DNA of 64,000 nt from an uncultured Bacilli bacterium (GCA_934096405.1 CAKOLW010000003.1:3282-67281), one strand, 5' to 3'; shown: positions 6,097 through 60,570, numbered from the stretch's first letter. Notes: generated by a model from the sequence alone, not told the origin. Numbers and translations: made by a program.

Positions 6097-8217
6097 ATGA
6101 CAGTAAAAGACTATGCATTAGATTTAAATGTTAGTGTTAATAGTGTTTTAGATAAATGTAAAAGTTTAGGCATAAAGGTTAGTAGTGAAAATGATTATTT
6201 AGAAGATGATGATATTATAATGTTAGATAATGTTATTGGAGAAATGGCTACTAATGAAGAAGTAGAAGAAAATTTACTTAGTGAAGAATTAGAAGATAAG
6301 TTTAACTTAGAAGATAGAGCTAATAATTTAATAGATGAAGATTTAACTGAAGAAAGAACTAAGAAAGTTAAATTAAAGAAAAAAGATTCTAATAAGAATG
6401 AAGATTTTAAGAAAGAAAAGAAGAATATTTATAAGCATAAAACTAAGTTACAAACTAATAAGAGTGAAGATGATACAAATGTAATACTTTATACTGATGG
6501 TATGACTGTTAAAGATTTAGCTAGTAAACTTGGTATAAGAGATGAAGAGATAATTAAGAAGATGTTTGGTATGGGATTAATTCTTAATATTAATCAGGCT
6601 ATTACATTTGAAGATGCTGAAGTTGTATGTTTAGAATATAATAAAGAATTAAAGAAAGAAGAAAGTAAAGATATTAGTAATTTTGAAGAATATGAAATTA
6701 TTGATGATGAGAATGATTTAGTTCCAAGACCGCCTATTGTTACTATTATGGGACATGTTGATCATGGTAAAACAAGTTTACTTGATTATATAAGACATTC
6801 TCATGTTGTAAGTGGAGAAGCAGGTGGAATTACCCAACATATTGGTGCTTATCAAGTTGAGATTAAAGGTAATTTAATTACATTTATTGATACTCCTGGA
6901 CATGCTGCATTTACTGAAATGAGAGCAAGAGGAGCAAAGATTACTGATATTGTTGTTATAATAGTGGCTGCTGATGATGGAGTTATGCCACAAACTAAAG
7001 AAGCAATAGACCATGCTAAAAGTGCTGGAGTTCCTATTATAGTGGCTATTAATAAAATAGATAAAGGTATAGGAAATATTGATAAAATAATGAGTGAGAT
7101 GAGTGAATATGGATTGACTCCTGAAGAATGGGGTGGAGATACTATATTTGTTAAATTATCTGCTCATACTGGAGAAAATGTTGACTTATTATTAGAGAAT
7201 ATTATTGCTTTAGCTGAAATGCAAGAATTAAAAGCAAATCCTAATAGGTATGCTGTAGGTACAGTTATTGAAGCTAAATTAGATAAAAATAAGGGACCAG
7301 TTGCAACACTTCTTATTAATAATGGTACTTTAAGATTAGGAGATCCTATTGTAGTTGGTTCTTCATTTGGTAAAGTAAGAACTTTAAAAAATAGTAATGG
7401 TATTGATTTAACTAGTGCTTTACCTAGTACTCCAGTTGAAGTTACAGGACTTAATGAAGTACCAGTCGCTGGAGATAAATTTATGGCATTTGAAAGTGAA
7501 AAAGAAGCAAGAAGTGTAGCTGAAAAGAGATCAAATATACAAAAAGAAAAGAAATATGCTAAGAAGGCAGTAAGTCTAGATGATTTATTTGAATCTATTA
7601 AAGAAGGTCATAAAGAAATTAATATAGTACTTAAAACTGATGTTAAAGGTAGTGAAGAGGCAGTTAAAAATGCTCTTGAAAAGATAAGTGTTGATGGAGT
7701 TAAAATATCAGTTATAAGAAGTGGAGTAGGAACTATTACAGAAAGTGATGTAGTGTTAGCTAGTGCATCAAATGCAATTATTATTGGATTTAATGTTGTT
7801 CCTAGTCATGAAACTAAAGAAACAGCTAAACAATATAATGTTGATATTAGATTATATAATATTATTTATAAAGTAGTAGAAGAAATAGAAGCAGCTATGA
7901 AAGGTATGCTTGATCCTGAATACGAAGAGGTTATTACTGGTAATGCTGAAGTTAGACAAATATTTAAGTTTTCTAAAGTTGGTAATATCGCAGGTAGTCA
8001 TGTTACTAGTGGTGTTGTAAAAAGTAATAGTCTTGTAAGATTAATTCGTGATGGAGTGGTAGTATATACTGGTAAAATAGGAAGTTTACAAAGAGAAAAG
8101 GATCAAGTTAAAGAAGTAAAAAATGGATTTGATTGTGGTATTACATTAGAAAACTTTATTGATATTAAAGTTGGTGATGTAATTGAAGCATATGAAATGA
8201 AGGAAGTAAAGAGATAA
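6097..8217 (+). CDS. infB: Translation initiation factor IF-2
   Basis: GTPase motifs GHVDHGKTS, DTPGH and NKID, with conserved C-terminal domains. 706 aa. Confidence 0.97.
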   Translation: MTVKDYALDLNVSVNSVLDKCKSLGIKVSSENDYLEDDDIIMLDNVIGEMATNEEVEENLLSEELEDKFNLEDRANNLIDEDLTEERTKKVKLKKKDSNKNEDFKKEKKNIYKHKTKLQTNKSEDDTNVILYTDGMTVKDLASKLGIRDEEIIKKMFGMGLILNINQAITFEDAEVVCLEYNKELKKEESKDISNFEEYEIIDDENDLVPRPPIVTIMGHVDHGKTSLLDYIRHSHVVSGEAGGITQHIGAYQVEIKGNLITFIDTPGHAAFTEMRARGAKITDIVVIIVAADDGVMPQTKEAIDHAKSAGVPIIVAINKIDKGIGNIDKIMSEMSEYGLTPEEWGGDTIFVKLSAHTGENVDLLLENIIALAEMQELKANPNRYAVGTVIEAKLDKNKGPVATLLINNGTLRLGDPIVVGSSFGKVRTLKNSNGIDLTSALPSTPVEVTGLNEVPVAGDKFMAFESEKEARSVAEKRSNIQKEKKYAKKAVSLDDLFESIKEGHKEINIVLKTDVKGSEEAVKNALEKISVDGVKISVIRSGVGTITESDVVLASASNAIIIGFNVVPSHETKETAKQYNVDIRLYNIIYKVVEEIEAAMKGMLDPEYEEVITGNAEVRQIFKFSKVGNIAGSHVTSGVVKSNSLVRLIRDGVVVYTGKIGSLQREKDQVKEVKNGFDCGITLENFIDIKVGDVIEAYEMKEVKR

Positions 8218-12961: not shown

Positions 12962-13897
12962 ATGATTTATCTTTTATATGGTGAATTTGAAAATGACATA
13001 GATAGATTTATAAATAAATTAATTAAAGATAATTCTATAGAGACTAAAATAGTTTATAATTATAAAGATACTACTATAGATGAAGTTATAAATGAGTGTT
13101 CCTATACTGATTTATTTGGTAATAAAAAGATAGTTATTTTGAATGAGTGTTTATTTTTAACTGGGAAAGAAACTTTAGATAGTGATAAATTAAATAATTA
13201 TATAGAAAATCCCAACTCGGATGTTATATTAGTATTTAAAATTGTTGTAGATAAGTTAGATGAAAGAAAAAAATTAGTTAAATTAATTAAGAGTAAGTGT
13301 ACAGTTAAAGAATTTAAATTATTAGATAGTAGTAATATTAAAGATTATATTAAGAAATATTTTGAAGAGTTGGATTTTAAAATAGATAATATATCTATAA
13401 ATGAAATAGCGGATAGACTTAAAGAGAATTCTAATGTTATAGATAGTGAATTAGATAAGTTGTATTTATATAAATTAAATGAAAAAGTTATTAATTTAGA
13501 TGATGTTAAAAAAGTAGTTACTAAGTATGATGATAATAAGATATTTAAATTAGTAGATGCTAGTATAAGAAAGAATAAAAGAGAAATATTTAATTTATAT
13601 AAAGAGTTACTAAATGATAAAGAAGAACCTATAGTTATATTATCATTGTTAGCTAATCAATTTAGACTTATATATCAAGTTAAAGTATTATATGAAGATG
13701 GGTATAATTTTAAAGATATAGGTGTTAAATTAAAAGAACATCCTTATAGAGTTCAACTAGCTTATAGTAATTCTTTAAATATAAGTAAGAGTGAAATAAA
13801 AGATATTTTATTAAAATTATCTGATATAGATTATCAAATTAAAACTGGTTTTTTTGATAAAGAGAAAGGTTTAGAGGTATTTTTCTTAGAATTATAA
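12962..13897 (+). CDS. holA: DNA polymerase III delta subunit (HolA-like)
   Basis: N-terminal IYLLYGEF, and a size and helical C-terminus typical of delta. The ATG at 12962 follows GTGAGGTG. Confidence 0.6.
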   Translation: MIYLLYGEFENDIDRFINKLIKDNSIETKIVYNYKDTTIDEVINECSYTDLFGNKKIVILNECLFLTGKETLDSDKLNNYIENPNSDVILVFKIVVDKLDERKKLVKLIKSKCTVKEFKLLDSSNIKDYIKKYFEELDFKIDNISINEIADRLKENSNVIDSELDKLYLYKLNEKVINLDDVKKVVTKYDDNKIFKLVDASIRKNKREIFNLYKELLNDKEEPIVILSLLANQFRLIYQVKVLYEDGYNFKDIGVKLKEHPYRVQLAYSNSLNISKSEIKDILLKLSDIDYQIKTGFFDKEKGLEVFFLEL

Positions 13898-28308: not shown

Positions 28309-29622
28309 ATGAATAAAAGTATTGATGAATTAATTTCTTATGTAGAAAAACTACCTAAATCTAAAACTTATCGTGAATGTATAAGTAATTTAAATTTAAT
28401 AGTTAAATATATAGAAGAAAATAATTTAATTATAACACCTGAAATATTTATGAGTATATTAAATAATAATAAATTTAATTATATAATTAAAACTGTGGTA
28501 GAAAGTAATTTCTTTGCTATTAAAGAGAATAAATTAGATATGATATTTAGTAATTCTACAATTATTTCTTTAATAGAACTTTATTGTATGCTTAATAATG
28601 TAGAGATAGAAGAATATAGTGAAAAAATAAAAGAAGATGCACTAGTTTATAATGGAGATACGGATGATTCTTTAACTATATATTTAAATAGTATTAATTT
28701 ACCTTTATTATCTATAAATGAAGAAAGAAGATTAGGATACTTAGTTTTACAGGGAGACCAAAAAGCAAGAAAGAAATTAATTGAACATAATTTAAGATTA
28801 GTTGTTTCTATTGCTAAACAATATTGTGGTAAGTCTGCATTAAGTATGCTTGATTTAATACAAGAAGGAAATATAGGACTTATGACTGCTGTAGATAAAT
28901 ATGATGTTACTAAAGAAATAAGATTTTCTACTTATGCTACTTGGTGGATTAAACAAAGTATATCAAGAGCTAGTTATGAAAAAGGTAGAAATATTAGAAT
29001 TCCTGTTCATAAAGTTGATGGTTTATCAAAATATAAAAGAGCTAAAGAAAGATTATTACAAGAAGTGGGAGAAGATTTAACTTTAAAAGATATAGCAGCT
29101 AAATTAGGTATTACTTTAGATGAAGCTTTAGAATATGAAAGATTATTTAATGATACTTTGAGTGCTAATGATTATATTGCTGAAGATTCAGATATTAGTG
29201 TATTAGATACAATAACTGATGAAAAAGATGATATAGAAAATATTTATTTCAAATATGATATGATAAGTTCTGTTGATGAATTTTTGGAAAGTAGTAATTT
29301 AACTGATAATGAAAAGTATGTTGTAATAAATAGATACGGAATAAATAAAAATAGAGAAAAAACGTTAGAAGAAATTGGTAAAACTTTAAATGTTACTAGA
29401 GAAAGAGTTAGACAAATGGAAAATAAAGCTTTAATAAAATTAGTTAGAAATGCAAATAATGTGTCTTTAGCAGATTATTTTGATAATGCAGAAGAAATAA
29501 AAGAAAGACTTAAATATATAAGGCAAAAAATTAGAACTAATAATTGTACTTCAAAAATAGAAAATTTGCATAAAGAAGCTACAAGAGTATTAAAAACTGA
29601 AGGTGGTAAATATGAATTATAA
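28309..29622 (+). CDS. RpoD-like sigma-70 family factor with long N- and C-terminal extensions
   Basis: Regions 1.2-2.4 ([50 protein letters not shown]), region 3, and region 4.2 (TLEEIGKTLNVTRERVRQMENKALIKL). About 130 aa at the N-terminus and about 60 aa at the C-terminus are unassigned. Confidence 0.8.
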   Translation: MNKSIDELISYVEKLPKSKTYRECISNLNLIVKYIEENNLIITPEIFMSILNNNKFNYIIKTVVESNFFAIKENKLDMIFSNSTIISLIELYCMLNNVEIEEYSEKIKEDALVYNGDTDDSLTIYLNSINLPLLSINEERRLGYLVLQGDQKARKKLIEHNLRLVVSIAKQYCGKSALSMLDLIQEGNIGLMTAVDKYDVTKEIRFSTYATWWIKQSISRASYEKGRNIRIPVHKVDGLSKYKRAKERLLQEVGEDLTLKDIAAKLGITLDEALEYERLFNDTLSANDYIAEDSDISVLDTITDEKDDIENIYFKYDMISSVDEFLESSNLTDNEKYVVINRYGINKNREKTLEEIGKTLNVTRERVRQMENKALIKLVRNANNVSLADYFDNAEEIKERLKYIRQKIRTNNCTSKIENLHKEATRVLKTEGGKYEL

Positions 29623-30460
29623 GGAACAAACAGAAAAAATTTATAATGAGGTTATAGAGAATAAAGATGTTGAAATCATCAAAAGTGCTGAATTAAGATA
29701 TGTTAAAAGAATTAAAAGAGAATTAGCAAATTATAATAATGTTGCATCTAAATATATGGAAGATGATGGTAAATATTATTTATTTGTTAAATATCAAGAA
29801 GAAAGATTACCTTTTGAAGAAATTAAAATTATGTACGATAGAGCTACAGAAGCTTATTTAAATGGTAATAATGGATTATGTATTCATATTTTAAGAGAAT
29901 TATTAAAGCGTGAAGGTTTTAATATGAGAGTATTTGCTAAATTAGGTATGGCTTATTATAAATGTCAAAATACAAATATGGCTATTAAATATTTAACAGT
30001 AGCTAATGTTATAAGTAAAAATATTAAGGGTAGATTTAATTTTGATGAATTGTTATTAGTACTTAGTAGTAGTAAAGGGATGGATAAAAAAGATTTAAAA
30101 CCAGTAGTATTAATGAAGGAAGAAGAATTTATTAATAAGGAAAATAATTATGATGAGTTATTTAATAAACTTTATAATTATTTAGTAGTAAATAAAGTTA
30201 ATTTTACTGATGGTTGTGTAGCTCTTGGTTTAAGTGATGAGGAAATTAATATTATGGCTTTAGTGTTTGCTAAGAATTATTATATACATCATGAAGTAGC
30301 TTTTGGAGATTTGTTTGTTAAGTTTTATGAAAAGAGAAATGGTAAGACTTTAAATACTAAGTTAATGTATAATGAATTAGTTAATAAAAAGAAAATTTAT
30401 TTAAACAAAGAATTAGATGAAGATATTAAAAGTCTGAGTTTAGCTATAAAAGTTAAGTAA
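29612..30460 (+). CDS. Hypothetical protein, apparently translationally coupled to the sigma paralog
   Basis: ATG at 29612 follows AAGGTGG and lies inside the 3' end of the sigma gene. The product is helical, with a TPR-like stretch (LGMAYYKCQNTNMAIKYL). Confidence 0.5.
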   Translation: MNYKEQTEKIYNEVIENKDVEIIKSAELRYVKRIKRELANYNNVASKYMEDDGKYYLFVKYQEERLPFEEIKIMYDRATEAYLNGNNGLCIHILRELLKREGFNMRVFAKLGMAYYKCQNTNMAIKYLTVANVISKNIKGRFNFDELLLVLSSSKGMDKKDLKPVVLMKEEEFINKENNYDELFNKLYNYLVVNKVNFTDGCVALGLSDEEINIMALVFAKNYYIHHEVAFGDLFVKFYEKRNGKTLNTKLMYNELVNKKKIYLNKELDEDIKSLSLAIKVK

Positions 30461-30468
30461 AGTTTAAT

Positions 30469-30497
30469 AAAAGTAGTTGTAATAGACTACTTTTTTT
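30469..30497 (+). terminator. Intrinsic terminator, homologous to the polC terminator
   Basis: AAAAGTAGT-tgtaatag-ACTACTTTTTTT. Confidence 0.8.
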
Positions 30498-30502
30498 GAT
30501 AA

Positions 30503-30690
30503 AATTAAAGAGTAAAAAGTAGAAGGAGTACAGAACTATGGAAAGAATAATTCTCTTTGATTTAAGTACCAAACTTGGTACGAATTTCGGGGGGGGTTAA
30601 AAATAATGCCTCTCATAGTTTTTTCGTTATATTAAATTCATAGGCATCAGTCTATGAGTTTTTTAGTGCTCTAAAAAATGGAGGCAAAAG
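30503..30690 (+). promoter_or_regulatory. Conserved 5' leader L1 of paralog P4: short ORF, G8 tract and two terminator-like hairpins
   Basis: TGATAAAAT extended -10 at 30497..30505. The conserved box AATTAAAGAGTAAAAAGTAGAAGGAG precedes a 20-codon ORF at 30538..30600 (MERIILFDLSTKLGTNFGGG). G8 lies at 30589..30596. Hairpin 1 ends CTCATAG plus T6 (30612..30624). Hairpin 2 is TCATAG-gcatcagt-CTATGA plus T6 (30638..30664). The 5' and 3' parts are near-identical to 58724..58908. Confidence 0.6.
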
Positions 30691-32211
30691 ATGAAGGAAA
30701 GAAAATATGCTTTGTTTGGAATAATTACAACAATAATTTTAATAATTGGAACTACACTAGCATACTTTAAATTTCAAGTATTTGGAAATAAAAAAGTAAT
30801 AAATGTGGAATCAACTAACTTACAAATAATATTTAATAATGGAGATAGTACATTTGAAGGAAATGCTTTAGAACCAGGTAATTATGATGAAATAAAGACA
30901 TTTAGTGTTAAAAACGAAACAGATACAGAGTTTAAATATAATATAATAATAAAAGATTTAATAAATACATTTGTAACAAAAGGTTATTTAGTATATAAAA
31001 TAACTAATACATCAAATAATGGAGGATACAGTATGAATGATTTTGAAGATATACCAAAATCATCAATAGCTTTAGATATAGGACTAGCATATAATATAAC
31101 TATTCCATCAGGAGTAACACAGGATTATACTATAGAGATAAAGTATTTAAATGATCCAAGTTATGATCAATCAGATGATATGGAAAAAGAAGTATCAGGA
31201 AGTATTTATATAGCAAAAGGAACAGAACCAACATTTATAACAAAAATATTAGAACAGAATAAAACAATAAGTGAAAGAACTAATTTTAAAGTAACTAATA
31301 CAGATAAAACAACAGGAACAATATATAAAACAAATAAAACAGAAGACTCTAGTGATGTATATTATTATTCAGGTAATACAATAAATAACTGGGTTAAGTT
31401 TGGAAAGTATACAACGGATGATACTTCAAGTAAAAAATTATGGAAATCTGGAGACGATATGTACTGGAGAATAATAAGAACCAATGAAGATGGGAGTGTA
31501 AGACTATTATATTCTGGAACAAGTCCAGATACAACAGAAGGCTATATAGGAACCTCAGCATTTAATAATTCAACTAAAGATCCATTGTATGTAGGTTATA
31601 TGTATGGAACAAGTGGTTCATTAGAAAGTAATAGAACAAATGAAAATGATAGTACAATAAAAACTGTAATTGACAAGTGGTATCAAAATAATTTACTAAA
31701 TGATTATGATAAATATATAAGTAAATCAGCAATATATTGTAATGATAGAAATGCTAGTAATTATGCTTTAGAAGGAACATATTATTCTAGCGCATACAAT
31801 AGAATTGAACAAGGATCGCCTACTTTAAAATGCGAAAATAAAAGTGATTCATTTAGTTATAATAATACAAGTGCAAAATTAAAATATCCTATAGCATTAG
31901 TAACTACAGATGAATTAAATTTTGCTGGAGGATATCTACTTAGAGCTGAAGGCATTTATTTTACAGTTAATAGTAATAATCTTTCAATTACTAATACACT
32001 ATTTTGGTGGACAATGAGTCCTTGGGGACTATACACTACGATAGCAGATACCTTCAGAGTAAAAGATACAGGAGTAATAAATGGAAACAATGTTTCATTT
32101 TTATTTGCAGTTAGACCTGTTATATCTGTATCATCATGTGCAAGAGTTAAATCAGGTAATGGAACAGCAGATAATCCATATGTAGTAGATGAAGAAGCTA
32201 GCACTTGCTAG
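30691..32211 (+). CDS. Paralog P4: TasA/SipW-type signal plus N-terminal domain plus conserved core (mosaic subtype)
   Basis: Signal IIGTTLAYFKFQVFG. The core has TGTIYKTNKTEDSSDVYYYSGNTINNWVKFG, YWRIIRTNEDGSVRLLY, YVGYMYGTSGSLESNRTNEN, AIYCNDRN, YPIALVTTDE, WWTMSP, VRPVISVSSC and NPYVVDEEASTC. Confidence 0.85.
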   Translation: MKERKYALFGIITTIILIIGTTLAYFKFQVFGNKKVINVESTNLQIIFNNGDSTFEGNALEPGNYDEIKTFSVKNETDTEFKYNIIIKDLINTFVTKGYLVYKITNTSNNGGYSMNDFEDIPKSSIALDIGLAYNITIPSGVTQDYTIEIKYLNDPSYDQSDDMEKEVSGSIYIAKGTEPTFITKILEQNKTISERTNFKVTNTDKTTGTIYKTNKTEDSSDVYYYSGNTINNWVKFGKYTTDDTSSKKLWKSGDDMYWRIIRTNEDGSVRLLYSGTSPDTTEGYIGTSAFNNSTKDPLYVGYMYGTSGSLESNRTNENDSTIKTVIDKWYQNNLLNDYDKYISKSAIYCNDRNASNYALEGTYYSSAYNRIEQGSPTLKCENKSDSFSYNNTSAKLKYPIALVTTDELNFAGGYLLRAEGIYFTVNSNNLSITNTLFWWTMSPWGLYTTIADTFRVKDTGVINGNNVSFLFAVRPVISVSSCARVKSGNGTADNPYVVDEEASTC

Positions 32212-58166: not shown

Positions 58167-58640
58167 ATGAATAATAATTTAGGTTCATGTGGATGTAGAA
58201 ATTCAAATAATGATGATTGTCAAAATAATTGCATACAAGAAATACTACAAGTAATTAATGTTCTTCAAAATAATGCTTGTCCAGATAATTGTTTAAATTC
58301 TTGTGATAGACCTGCATTAGGTGGAGGCGGAAATTGTGTAGTATGTAATACTAGACCAATAATGCTTTATACTTGTTGTGGAAATGGAACACCTTGGAGT
58401 ATGCCAACAACTAGAACTACAACTGATTGTAATAGTGAAGATGCTACAGGATGCTCAAGTGTATTCAGAGTAGAAAAATGTGATGGATGTTGTTGTACAT
58501 TTAGAGTATTAGCTGCTAATACTGATTCTAGTAGTCCTTATCCATATGTTGCTACTGATTCAATATTTACTATGAATGTTAATTGCATATGCTCATTAAG
58601 ATGTTTAAATGATACTTATGTAGAATGTATATGTGGTTAA
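58167..58640 (+). CDS. Cysteine-rich spore coat/exosporium protein, CotZ/CotY family-like
   Basis: About 26 Cys in 157 aa. The segments IQEILQVINVLQNNACPDNC, NTRPIMLY, SVFRVEKCDGCCCTFRVLA and NCICSLRCLND parallel, from memory, B. subtilis CotZ (EDLQNAVEEDCPTGC, FFRVERVHGSCATLSLL, CFCAINCLN). Confidence 0.6.
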   Translation: MNNNLGSCGCRNSNNDDCQNNCIQEILQVINVLQNNACPDNCLNSCDRPALGGGGNCVVCNTRPIMLYTCCGNGTPWSMPTTRTTTDCNSEDATGCSSVFRVEKCDGCCCTFRVLAANTDSSSPYPYVATDSIFTMNVNCICSLRCLNDTYVECICG

Positions 58641-58644
58641 TTAA

Positions 58645-58676
58645 AGACTACCATTAATTTGGTAGTTTTTATTTTG
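58645..58676 (+). terminator. Intrinsic terminator
   Basis: ACTACCA-ttaatt-TGGTAGT followed by TTTTATTTT. Confidence 0.75.
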
Positions 58677-58723
58677 TTATTTTTTGATACAAAATACTTG
58701 AACTCAATAAGATATTTTGGTAG

Positions 58724-58908
58724 AATTAAAGAGTAAAAAGTAGAAGGAGCACAAAACTATGGGGCAAATAGATTTCTTTCATAATAAAACAATAGTTTGT
58801 TATGGGGGGGTCAGTATTATTAACTAACTCCCATAGTTTTTTCGTTATATTAAATTCATGGGCACCAGTCTATGAGTTTTTTAGTGCTCTAAAAATGGAG
58901 GAAAGACA
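58724..58908 (+). promoter_or_regulatory. Conserved 5' leader L2 of paralog P8: short ORF, G7 tract and two terminator-like hairpins
   Basis: TGGTAGAAT extended -10 at 58718..58726. It has the same conserved box as L1. A 22-codon ORF lies at 58759..58827 (MGQIDFFHNKTIVCYGGVSIIN). G7 is at 58804..58810. Hairpin 1 is TATGGGGG...CTCCCATA plus GTTTTTT (to 58842). Hairpin 2 is TCATGG-gcaccagt-CTATGA plus T6 (58856..58882). Confidence 0.6.
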
Positions 58909-60570
58909 ATGAAAGAAAAGAAGTATTTAATTTATGGAATATGTTTATCACTATTAATAGTTATAGGAGTAACACTAGCATACTTTATAACAGAGATAGA
59001 AGGAGATAAAAAAGATGTTACATTAAATACAGGAGATTTAAGAGTAATATTTAATAATGGAGAGAAAATAGAAGGAATAGATATAGAACCAGGATGGAGT
59101 ATAACAAAAACATTTAGTATAGAAAATAAATCTAAGACAGAATATAAATACAATATAGTAATACAAGATTTAGTAAATACATTTGTATCAGATAACTTAG
59201 TATATAAAATAACAAGTACAAATAATGGACACAATATGGCAGATTATGAAGTATTACCAAAATCAGAAACAACAGAAGATACAATACTAACATATAGTAC
59301 AACAATATCAGGGAAAACGACACAAGAATATACAATAGAAGTAAAGTTTAAAGAAGAAGATAGAAACCAATATGAAGATATGGGTAAAACTATAACAGGT
59401 AAGATTTATATTACTAAAGGCACAAAAAATTCAACTTTTTTAACTCAGGCAATACTAAGAGATAACCCAACAATAAGTGAAAGAACAGATTTTATAAATG
59501 TTAATATTGAAAACACAACAGGAACAATATATAAAACAAATAAAACAGAAGATGGTAGTTATGTATACTATTATTCTGGAAATACAACAAATAATTGGAT
59601 TAAATTTGGCAAGTATGAAACAGACAGGTTTATGTCAACTAATTGTTATAATTCTTTTCGTTGTGAGGGCAATAGTCTTAATGAATGCTATGCTGCTGGT
59701 GGTATAGCTTGTTACTCTGCTTGGAATATAGGCGATGACATATATTGGAGAATAATTCGTACTAATGAAGACGAAAGCATAAGACTTTTATATTTTGGTA
59801 CTAAAATGAATGTAAACAATAGAAGTGTTATATCTACTTCTGAATATAATATAAATAATAGTGATCCTATGTATGTAGGCTATATGTATGGAACAAGTGG
59901 TTCATTAGAAAATAATAGAACAAATAGAAATGATAGTACAGTAAAAACATATATTGATACATGGTATCAAAATAATCTATTAACAAATTATGATAAATAT
60001 ATAAACAAAACTGCAATATATTGTAATGATAGAAGTGTTCCAAATAATAAATATTCCACATCTAGTAAATTTATATATGCATCTGCTCAAAGAATAGGCA
60101 CGGGAGCACCATCATATAAATGTGGTGTAGATACAAACAATGAATTAATTGAAAGCACACAGGCTGTTGCAGATAAATTTAGTGCAAGTACAGAAGGCGG
60201 AGGAAATGGACAATTAAAATATCCAATTGCTTTAATGACGGGAGACGAAATGGCATTTGCAGGTGGCTACAATGGTAGCGAAAAATCAGATGACCCGTAC
60301 CCATGGCATATATCTAACAGAGATGGAAAATGGAGATATCACCCTTTTTATTCATTATCGCCTGGAACTAATAGTCAACTAGTATTCATGGGTGCAAATT
60401 TACCACCAGCATCCATTGAATTTGATGCTGACATCGGCAGCTTTAATTCTATTAGTGGTGAAGAATTTGGAGTTGTTCCGGTCATTTCCCTATCTTCTTG
60501 TGTCAAAGTAACAGGAACAGGAACTGCTGATGATCCATATGTTGTTGATGAAGAAGGGTCTACATGTTAA
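58909..60570 (+). CDS. Paralog P8: TasA/SipW-type signal plus N-terminal domain plus conserved core with a Cys-rich insert
   Basis: Signal VIGVTLAYFITEIEG. The N-terminal domain is about 75% identical to that of P3. The core has TGTIYKTNKTEDGSYVYYYSGNTTNNWIKFG, YWRIIRTNEDESIRLLY, YVGYMYGTSGSLENNRTN, AIYCNDRS, KFSASTEGGGNGQLKYPIALMTGDE, VVPVISLSSC and DPYVVDEEGSTC. Confidence 0.85.
   Translation: MKEKKYLIYGICLSLLIVIGVTLAYFITEIEGDKKDVTLNTGDLRVIFNNGEKIEGIDIEPGWSITKTFSIENKSKTEYKYNIVIQDLVNTFVSDNLVYKITSTNNGHNMADYEVLPKSETTEDTILTYSTTISGKTTQEYTIEVKFKEEDRNQYEDMGKTITGKIYITKGTKNSTFLTQAILRDNPTISERTDFINVNIENTTGTIYKTNKTEDGSYVYYYSGNTTNNWIKFGKYETDRFMSTNCYNSFRCEGNSLNECYAAGGIACYSAWNIGDDIYWRIIRTNEDESIRLLYFGTKMNVNNRSVISTSEYNINNSDPMYVGYMYGTSGSLENNRTNRNDSTVKTYIDTWYQNNLLTNYDKYINKTAIYCNDRSVPNNKYSTSSKFIYASAQRIGTGAPSYKCGVDTNNELIESTQAVADKFSASTEGGGNGQLKYPIALMTGDEMAFAGGYNGSEKSDDPYPWHISNRDGKWRYHPFYSLSPGTNSQLVFMGANLPPASIEFDADIGSFNSISGEEFGVVPVISLSSCVKVTGTGTADDPYVVDEEGSTC

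Follow-up and report, generated by a model that had tools for sequence, protein, structure and literature searches.

Phase variation in which a repeat within a leader peptide controls a terminator has been proven by experiment for one species and one repeat type (PMC3894217). In the pil1 and pil3 loci of Streptococcus gallolyticus, where the mechanism was shown genetically, GCAGA repeats are located in a leader open reading frame (ORF) upstream of a stem-loop terminator; a peptide stop at least 28 nt before the hairpin gives low expression, whereas a stop immediately before, within or beyond the hairpin gives high expression, the short peptides ending about 28-39 nt before the hairpin and the repeat comprising 13-22 GCAGA units (PMC3894217). 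In the literature we found no second example of a leader-peptide repeat switch beyond S. gallolyticus and none with a homopolymer. Here we analyse a stretch of 64,000 nucleotides from an uncultured Bacilli bacterium (GCA_934096405.1, CAKOLW010000003.1:3282-67281; hereafter the window), which contains two leaders, L1 and L2, each with a run of G residues in a short ORF upstream of a gene for a secreted protein. With a probability of about 0.62, these G runs are hypervariable tracts in leader ORFs and constitute phase-variable leader-peptide attenuators that control the downstream secreted-protein genes; a one-base slip would probably turn each of these genes on or off. What would be new is the combination of the leader-peptide terminator switch logic with a homopolymer, in a reusable module.

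The leaders resemble pil1/pil3 in the elements and their order, i.e. a promoter, a ribosome-binding site and ATG starting a leader ORF with a slippage-prone repeat, a stem-loop terminator and a surface gene. Moreover, early and long stop distances fall into the same two classes, the repeat number sets the frame, the host belongs to the Bacillota, and several loci per genome use one device. Of the features that characterize the pil1 type, four were found, namely a leader ORF with ribosome-binding site and ATG, a repeat varying between isolates, a stem-loop before the gene and a frame-dependent stop, and by analogy read-through would depend on translation and downstream expression would be bimodal. 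Nevertheless, the systems differ in several respects. The repeat is a G7-G10 homopolymer here and consists of GCAGA units there, with no sequence similarity, and instead of sortase pili the genes encode signal-peptide proteins from a large family of unknown function. The module described here is portable, being found before dozens of paralogs and two genes for small helix-turn-helix (HTH) proteins in several uncultured gut species; it additionally contains a conserved long-range helix that includes the leader AUG, and there are natural run-less versions that are 'locked' in the long frame. Finally, the pil1/pil3 switch is proven by experiment, whereas the present one is predicted from the sequence.

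Individual elements of the device recur in other systems. In Escherichia coli pyrBI a ribosome translating the leader ORF through the attenuator blocks the terminator, and UTP is sensed via polymerase pausing. As in pyrBI, leader ORF and terminator hairpin overlap, ~20 nt before the hairpin there is a U-rich stretch, and read-through would need a ribosome close behind RNA polymerase (RNAP); unlike in pyrBI, the variable is the length of a DNA tract, which would set the frame, and there is no link to nucleotide metabolism. Poly-G/C contingency loci are well known from genes or promoters of Neisseria, Haemophilus and Campylobacter, and Treponema tpr genes have an upstream poly-G tract. The likeness extends to a G homopolymer of 7-10 residues that varies between isolates, to its position upstream of surface-protein genes and to the presence of multiple loci per genome, but in contingency loci the tract resides in the structural gene, causing a frameshift, or in or near the promoter, altering its spacing, whereas here it is located inside a separate leader ORF. 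In cwpV of Clostridioides difficile a site-specific DNA inversion changes the sequence of the leader RNA. Common to both cases are a low-GC host from the Bacillota and an intrinsic terminator whose formation, in the 5' leader of a surface-protein gene, is phase-variable; here, in contrast to cwpV, the terminator is constant and the path of the ribosome would change. An amino-acid attenuator of the trp/his type was considered and rejected, as no conserved antiterminator was found, the codon phase is not conserved and the downstream genes encode secreted proteins.

In the mechanism we propose, a sigma-70-type promoter with an extended -10 element would start a leader of about 175 nt, and a Shine-Dalgarno (SD) sequence and AUG near its 5' end would start a short ORF reading into the G run. 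Slipped-strand mispairing would alter the number of G residues, and this number would set the frame past the tract, an intrinsic terminator being predicted ~40-60 nt past the tract and directly before the SD sequence of the gene for the secreted or surface protein. In the early frame the ribosome would stop 27-45 nt before the hairpin, allowing the terminator to form and leaving the gene low or OFF, whereas in the long frame it would reach the hairpin foot, the 5' arm, the loop or beyond, the hairpin would be kept from folding and read-through would result (ON). With G9 the stop would be at the hairpin foot in L1, and in L2 the ORF would be open to a TGA overlapping the main ATG. With many leaders per genome, the outcome would be a combinatorial, heritable and reversible variation of a paralogous surface-protein family. 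This proposal is built on a tract that is conserved in position and hypervariable, i.e. polymorphic in length, on a leader ORF that is maintained, on a terminator that covaries and on the geometry of the reading frames.

The runs of G8 in L1 and G7 in L2 are the sole G or C runs of at least 6 in the whole window, which has a GC content of 26%; 0.26 runs of G7 are expected per window, and none of 100 dinucleotide shuffles matched the observed count. The run count and the shuffles thus bear out the statement of the initial annotation, a reading of the window's sequence, that only two G runs of 7 or more exist. Both runs are located upstream of an intact main ORF, 95 nt (L1) and 99 nt (L2) from its ATG, and start 84 nt (L1) and 78 nt (L2) past the end of the predicted -10 element. 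As this extended -10 promoter is found directly upstream of the leader, the predicted transcript has the short ORF close to its 5' end, and the promoter does not include the tract. A homopolymer switch in the promoter spacer was rejected, since the tract is neither between nor next to the -35 and -10 elements and the promoter position is conserved across the leader subtypes, and so was an intragenic homopolymer frameshift switch, since the tract is outside the structural gene and the main ORFs are intact. The SD sequence of the short ORF, AGAAGGAG, is the same in both leaders with a spacing of 9 nt to the ATG, both runs begin at codon position 1, and the encoded peptides, each followed by a stop codon, are MERIILFDLSTKLGTNFGGG (L1) and MGQIDFFHNKTIVCYGGVSIIN (L2), exactly as had been annotated; this codon position, shared by the two window leaders, is not conserved among homologous leaders, in which the first G has phases 34/9/19. 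The earlier description of the cores around the runs as non-homologous agrees with the comparison of L1 and L2 as well: a core that has diverged is flanked by a 5' block that is conserved and a 3' block of ~80 nt that is identical.

Homologous leaders were sought in the gut metagenomes of JGI and ENA with a pattern of the 3' block only, the G run being excluded, which recovered 61 metagenome loci; in total ~70 homologous leaders from human-gut metagenomes and metagenome-assembled genomes (MAGs) of other species were collected. Runs of G5-G10 are located at the same position in ~50 of the 60 leaders with enough upstream sequence (G8 20 times, G9 20 times, G10 12 times), and as the pattern that recovered them lacked the G run, this recurrence supports the proposed role of the tract. 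Contigs of the window's own species were located in human-gut metagenomes via exact copies of the CotZ-like protein, IF3 and the sigma factor of the window. None of the GTDB representative genomes contains the exact 24-mer of the 3' block; when GTDB was scanned at the protein level, paralogs at 43-49% identity were obtained in other species, i.e. in the MAGs 'Bacillota bacterium UBA11492' and, from the Hadza, 'uncultured Bacilli bacterium', and additionally in Clostridium sp. CAG:628. Four of these loci carry G8 or G9, ~105 nt upstream of the gene in L024-L026 and at a distance hidden by an N-gap in L023, in leaders with the architecture of the window leaders and a different sequence. Such a leader is lacking in relatives at 53-55% identity (L002-L005), where the gene follows a 140-aa ORF.

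The collected leaders fall into three subtypes with otherwise dissimilar cores, type I being that of L1, type II being related to L2 and type III comprising the majority. Common to all of them are the extended -10 element (TGn) at the same position, the SD sequence and ATG, the ORF running into the G run, a long-range helix termed A:B and the terminator, whose hairpin and U-tail directly precede the SD sequence of the main gene. Among seven diverged leaders there are 0 stop triplets between the leader ATG and the G run in the frame of the ORF, compared to 19 and 8 in the other frames; together with the SD sequence before the ATG in every subtype this implies that the leader ORF is maintained. 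Moreover, in all ten leaders with G4 or without a run the ORF is fused in the long frame. These leaders represent at least three independent lineages, i.e. a short form lacking the whole hairpin, L074 with a decayed run, and L035 with an unrelated 5' half. The latter was observed at 6926-7074 (-) and, like the leader at 13502-13650 (+) of L087, precedes a gene for an HTH-like protein of 80-85 aa; although its 5' half is unrelated and run-less, its ORF is fused in the long frame. At L001 (780-1100, on the contig of L016) a leader of the L1 type follows a tandem paralog and not the ORF of 285 aa; its promoter region resembles that of L2 and its 3' half is identical to that of L1, which suggests recombination or mosaicism between leader copies.

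The length of the tract varies on otherwise identical backgrounds. Contigs from different samples form six groups within which the flanks, i.e. 100 nt before and about 90 nt after the run, are identical and only the number of G residues differs (G7/G8, G8/G9, G8/G9, G8/G9/G10, G9/G10 and G8/G10). Among 28 pairs of contigs with zero mismatches in the flanks the G length differs in 14, a proportion equal to that of diverged pairs, whereas the other homopolymers of the leaders (T6-T8, A8) are constant within the identical-flank groups. The L2 haplotype of the window was found three times with G7 (window, L007, L014) and once with G8 (L012), its sister haplotype five times with G8 and once with G9 (L013), and an allele of the L1 type once with G9 (L001) and twice with G8 (L017, L020). 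Judged by this between-sample comparison of contigs, the tract behaves like one that mutates orders of magnitude faster than its surroundings. A check of population data for heterogeneous G lengths had been suggested with the initial annotation, and contigs with identical flanks indeed differ in G length across samples. Its idea that slipped-strand variation of the tract shifts the leader frame is thus supported by the length variants and by the frame geometry described below, and that of phase-variable expression as far as sequence goes.

Such differences might arise if the run lengths, or the runs themselves, were errors of sequencing, assembly or polishing. The contigs are low-coverage (about 2-25x) short-read (Illumina) metagenome assemblies and several of them break at the run, as would be expected of an artefact. 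However, ~50 independent assemblies, which come from different studies, assemblers and species, share the run at one and the same site, contigs with identical flanks differ by 2 nt (G8 vs G10), the T6-T8 and A8 runs of the same leaders are invariant within groups, and the run-less leaders have a coherent in-frame ORF, rendering an artefact highly improbable. Breaks or N-gaps at or just after the run, or a few hundred nt into the downstream paralog, are frequent and were observed at the end of L099, where the contig terminates 4 nt before the run, in L023 (2645-2893), in L034 (about 2576-2838), at the start of L028 and at the ends of L008-L015. These breaks fit a heterogeneous tract, poor read-through of poly-G and the repetition of leader and N-terminal sequences; loci with such leaders are expected to be under-represented or mis-joined in MAGs.

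The position at which the leader ORF stops depends on the tract. Early stops are located 27-45 nt before the 5' arm of the terminator, and long stops at the foot of this arm (-1), inside it (+7), within the hairpin loop (+12) or at +58, the last being the TGA that overlaps the main ATG (caATGAaa) in the L2 haplotype of the window. In L1, G8 gives an early stop (-36), G9 a long one (-1), and G7 and G10 also give a long one (+7); in L2, G7 (-27) and G8 (-31) give early stops and G9 a long one (+58), the long frame requiring G6, G9 or G12. Since both window copies are in the early frame, both are predicted to be OFF. With a G9 allele of L2, the open leader ORF would extend across both U-runs as far as the TGA at the main start (58804-58912), which would allow translational coupling beside antitermination; the sister haplotype of L2 has a TAG in the terminator arm instead of this TGA. 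Among the 62 contigs with G5 or longer, 42 are in an early and 20 in a long frame, near the 2:1 expected for an unbiased frame. The peptide tails of the long frame vary from subtype to subtype, most substitutions in them being non-synonymous; for these reasons a conserved functional micropeptide was rejected, and the signal is more likely to be translation as such than the peptide.

The RNA structure of the leaders allows the role of the G run to be assessed from another side. Both window leaders fold far more stably than shuffled sequences (z of -4.6 for L1 and -4.2 for L2), and in the ensemble an upstream pyrimidine run is the partner of the G run at a probability of 0.86 (L1) and 0.96 (L2), compared to 0.11 (L1) and 0.03 (L2) for the downstream CCTCTC (L1) or CTCCC (L2). 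The initial annotation had the runs pair with these downstream pyrimidines, which is possible but minor, and form the 5' arm of a 'terminator 1' ending in the first T6, an assignment that is not supported: the run pairs mostly upstream and the first T6 belongs to helix A:B. This helix joins the short ORF's A-run and AUG to the region of the first U-run, thereby enclosing the domain of the G run. It is present in all leader subtypes with differing sequences (AAAACUAUGAGA and UCUCAUAGUUUU in types I/II, GUACAUGAAAA and UUUUCAUGUGC in type III), is 95-99% paired, its changes being one-sided in several cases and compensatory in one pair, and has energies of -10 to -16 kcal/mol; it could restrict initiation to one pioneer ribosome or serve as a pause element. 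The first T6 forms the 3' strand of helix A:B and was accordingly rejected as a terminator tail; type III has the U-run ahead of the remainder of this strand. Type III leaders have no pyrimidine stretch before the first U-run, this U-run is not the tail of a helix, and their G run is without a convincing pyrimidine partner, unpaired between two small hairpins; thus, 'terminator 1' is not a conserved element. The conserved terminator-like element is the second hairpin of the initial annotation (30634-30661 and 58852-58879), with 12 bp followed by U6. In types I/II all its positions pair (100%), two pairs being compensatory in 8 of 16 leaders, and it covaries anew between types I/II and III. A general alternative pairing termed B:D (CTCATAG with CTATGAG) was rejected, type II and III sequences being unable to form it, and a conserved antiterminator alternative to the terminator hairpin was not found among the leader subtypes. 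At gathering score, a search of the whole window against Rfam (Rfam 15) returned no leader family, only a T-box passing, and at E up to 10 the best matches to the two leaders had E values of 0.24 or worse and scores far below their thresholds. Rho-dependent polarity was considered as well, but the leader has a very C-poor composition.

The stability beyond shuffles, the strong pairing with the upstream pyrimidines and the covariation-backed helix A:B around the G-run domain would also suit a leader that responds to a protein, a small RNA or a ligand, in which the G run is mainly an RNA structural element, as an arm with the upstream pyrimidines or of 'terminator 1', and its length variation is tolerated noise. 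We regard this as unlikely, since in type III, the largest subtype, the run has no convincing partner, the core around it is not conserved between subtypes, and a deletion of the run can leave the leader otherwise intact. Furthermore, one or two G residues more or less in a G.U-rich helix would hardly alter its stability, yet it is length alone that varies, and the lack of an Rfam match, the low downstream pairing (0.03-0.11) and the type III U-run, which is no helix tail, point in the same direction.

Classical sensing attenuation would equally place a run inside an SD-preceded ORF upstream of a terminator: the ribosome would be held up by two or three successive rare GGG codons, by poly-Gly or by an SD-like GGGGG, and the stall position would set the terminator according to the status of Gly-tRNA or translation, with no switching of the DNA. 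GGG is indeed rare, as the initial annotation had assumed, being the least used Gly codon of the window's long ORFs (4% of Gly, 2.4 per 1000), none of which contains an in-frame GGGGGG. However, the phase of the run varies among the homologous leaders, so that it often does not read GGG-GGG-GGG from position 1, the regulated genes encode secreted proteins and are not involved in glycine metabolism, a conserved antiterminator is missing from the leaders compared, run-less leaders retain ORF and terminator, and the variation in length between identical alleles would be left unexplained. Codon stalling as the principal mechanism is therefore quite improbable, although GGG pausing could modulate the attenuator proposed here.

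Slippage is known to occur at homopolymers of 8 or more, and the geometry of frame-dependent stops would serve RNA-level slippage equally well: RNAP would slip on G8-G10, giving mixed leader frames in each cell and a graded, non-heritable expression, instead of or beside a DNA switch. Slippage on RNA does not explain the length polymorphism observed in DNA, and we consider it rather improbable as the explanation, but both processes can coexist. One may further speculate, as an extension that we deem doubtful, that helix A:B, by hiding the leader AUG, and the hairpin domain of the G run could gate the loading of the pioneer ribosome and thus join a physiological signal to the heritable state of the tract, slippage of RNAP on G8-G10 adding a non-heritable, probabilistic layer; the result would be a portable bet-hedging device with three levels (DNA, RNA and translation) across dozens of surface-protein paralogs of uncultured gut Bacillota.

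Several points count against a phase-variable leader-peptide attenuator. The L1 haplotype of the window has G8 in all four contigs (the window and three more samples), i.e. mostly one state, and 15 of the 17 contigs of the window's own species are in the early frame; the switching rate could be modest, or OFF could be selected, in this species. Some of the length calls that differ by +/-1 could be errors of the low-coverage assemblies. An open frame of ~13 codons past the tract would arise by chance at an estimated probability of about 0.5, rendering the frame geometry weak when taken alone, and 'one frame open to the terminator' was therefore judged weak by itself as a statistical argument, such a frame being ~50% likely by chance in this composition. 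The short-run leaders L051 (G5) and L066 (G6) are in early frames. Type III terminators have the same A.C mismatch in 33 of 36 leaders (alignment A4, columns 127 and 141), which lowers the hairpin from about -12 to -7.5 kcal/mol and makes these terminators weak; the mismatched hairpin may be a deliberately leaky terminator. A simple terminator scan of both window leaders did not flag the terminator-like hairpins. Finally, we infer the translation of the leader ORF, the activity of the terminator, the coupling of ribosome and RNAP and the ON/OFF polarity of the long frame from the sequence. Coupling of ribosome and RNAP may be loose in some Bacillota.

The features of both leaders are listed in Table 1. 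For L1 we infer a transcription start site at about 30512. An AUG at 30607-30609, 10 nt past the G run of L1, might start an ORF of 9 codons (MPLIVFSLY and a stop) that ends at the foot of the terminator, and GGGGG could act as an SD mimic for this AUG; such a downstream ORF is not present in L2 or the other subtypes.

Table 1. Features of the leaders L1 and L2 (positions in the window; energies and pairings are predictions).
Feature	Position	Strand	Details
L1 promoter	30477..30505	+	-35 TTGTAA (30477-30482), 17-nt spacer, extended -10 TGATAAAAT (30497-30505); promoter scan
L1 leader-ORF SD sequence AGAAGGAG	30521..30528	+	9 nt before ATG
L1 helix A strand AGAACTATGGAA, including leader AUG	30532..30543	+	partner B 30611-30622; duplex -10.0 kcal/mol
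L1 leader ORF, present frame	30538..30600	+	20 aa, TAA 30598-30600; early stop, 36 nt before terminator arm
L1 upstream pyrimidine run TTCTCTTT	30551..30558	+	predicted main partner of G run; minimum free energy fold, pair probabilities 0.83-0.90
L1 poly-G tract, G8	30589..30596	+	hypervariable; related allele with G9 vs G8 and the same flanks (L001 vs L017/L020)
L1 helix B strand TCTCATAGTTTT and remaining T residues ('first T6' of the initial annotation)	30611..30624	+	pair counts, duplex energy
L1 intrinsic-terminator-like hairpin AAATTCATAGGC/ATCA/GTCTATGAGTTT and U6 tail	30634..30664	+	-12.7 kcal/mol, z -6.3
L1 putatively regulated gene	30691..32211	+	506 aa, N-terminal signal-peptide-like TLAYF motif, large paralogous family
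L2 promoter	58698..58726	+	-35 TTGAAC (58698-58703), 17-nt spacer, extended -10 TGGTAGAAT (58718-58726); promoter scan
L2 leader-ORF SD sequence AGAAGGAG	58742..58749	+	9 nt before ATG
L2 helix A strand AAAACTATGGGG, including leader AUG	58753..58764	+	partner B 58829-58840; -15.8 kcal/mol
L2 leader ORF, present frame	58759..58827	+	22 aa, TAA 58825-58827; early stop, 27 nt before terminator arm
L2 upstream pyrimidine run TTTCTTTC	58773..58780	+	predicted partner of G run; probabilities 0.67-0.99
L2 poly-G tract, G7	58804..58810	+	hypervariable; G7/G8 on one haplotype
L2 helix B strand TCCCATAGTTTT and remaining T residues	58829..58842	+	pair counts
L2 intrinsic-terminator-like hairpin AAATTCATGGGC/ACCA/GTCTATGAGTTT and U6 tail	58852..58882	+	-12.4 kcal/mol, z -5.2; covariation
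L2 putatively regulated gene	58909..60570	+	553-aa paralog, N-terminal motif as in the L1 gene

The proteins encoded downstream of L1 and L2 are paralogs with 53% identity; their family is very large (more than 5,800 matches), some of the matches having DUF6273. Nearly all genes downstream of the ~70 leaders encode members of this one family, the two exceptions being the small HTH-like proteins mentioned above. The N-terminus of the family is composed of a basic stretch, a hydrophobic stretch and an (S/T)LAYF-like motif. The regulated proteins gave no significant match against Pfam, NCBIfam and PDB sequences, and a SipW-type signal peptide model was matched below threshold only (E 0.075), so that 'SipW-dependent' is a lead and not a finding. 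At least 4 leader copies are present in one MAG and 2 in this window.

As to the neighbourhood of the leaders, the T-box leader (RF00230, 98.4 bits) at 26266-26444 is located directly upstream of the gene for aspartyl-tRNA synthetase (26477-28222). The region 28309-30460 encodes a sigma-70-family protein of 437 aa (regions 1.2, 2, 3 and 4) and then an overlapping ORF of ~282-285 aa, for which no family match was found; L1 is next, and this synteny of sigma factor, ORF and L1 is kept in four other samples (L096-L099). Directly upstream of L2, the region 58167-58671 contains the gene for a cysteine-rich CotZ-like protein of 157 aa (spore-coat family) with a strong terminator at 58642-58671; identical copies of this protein are present in at least 14 gut-metagenome contigs.

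In several uncultured low-GC Bacillota of the human gut, from Hadza, Nepali and other cohorts, the module precedes numerous genes of a large secreted-protein family. If the proposed mechanism holds true, these commensals would vary their surface combinatorially through single-base slips, and the expression state of a locus could be read from its sequence by a simple rule, i.e. the G length modulo 3 in relation to the stop position. Metagenome assemblies would then give one arbitrary state per locus and would often break there, and annotation that seeks homopolymers only in genes or promoters would overlook this class of switches.

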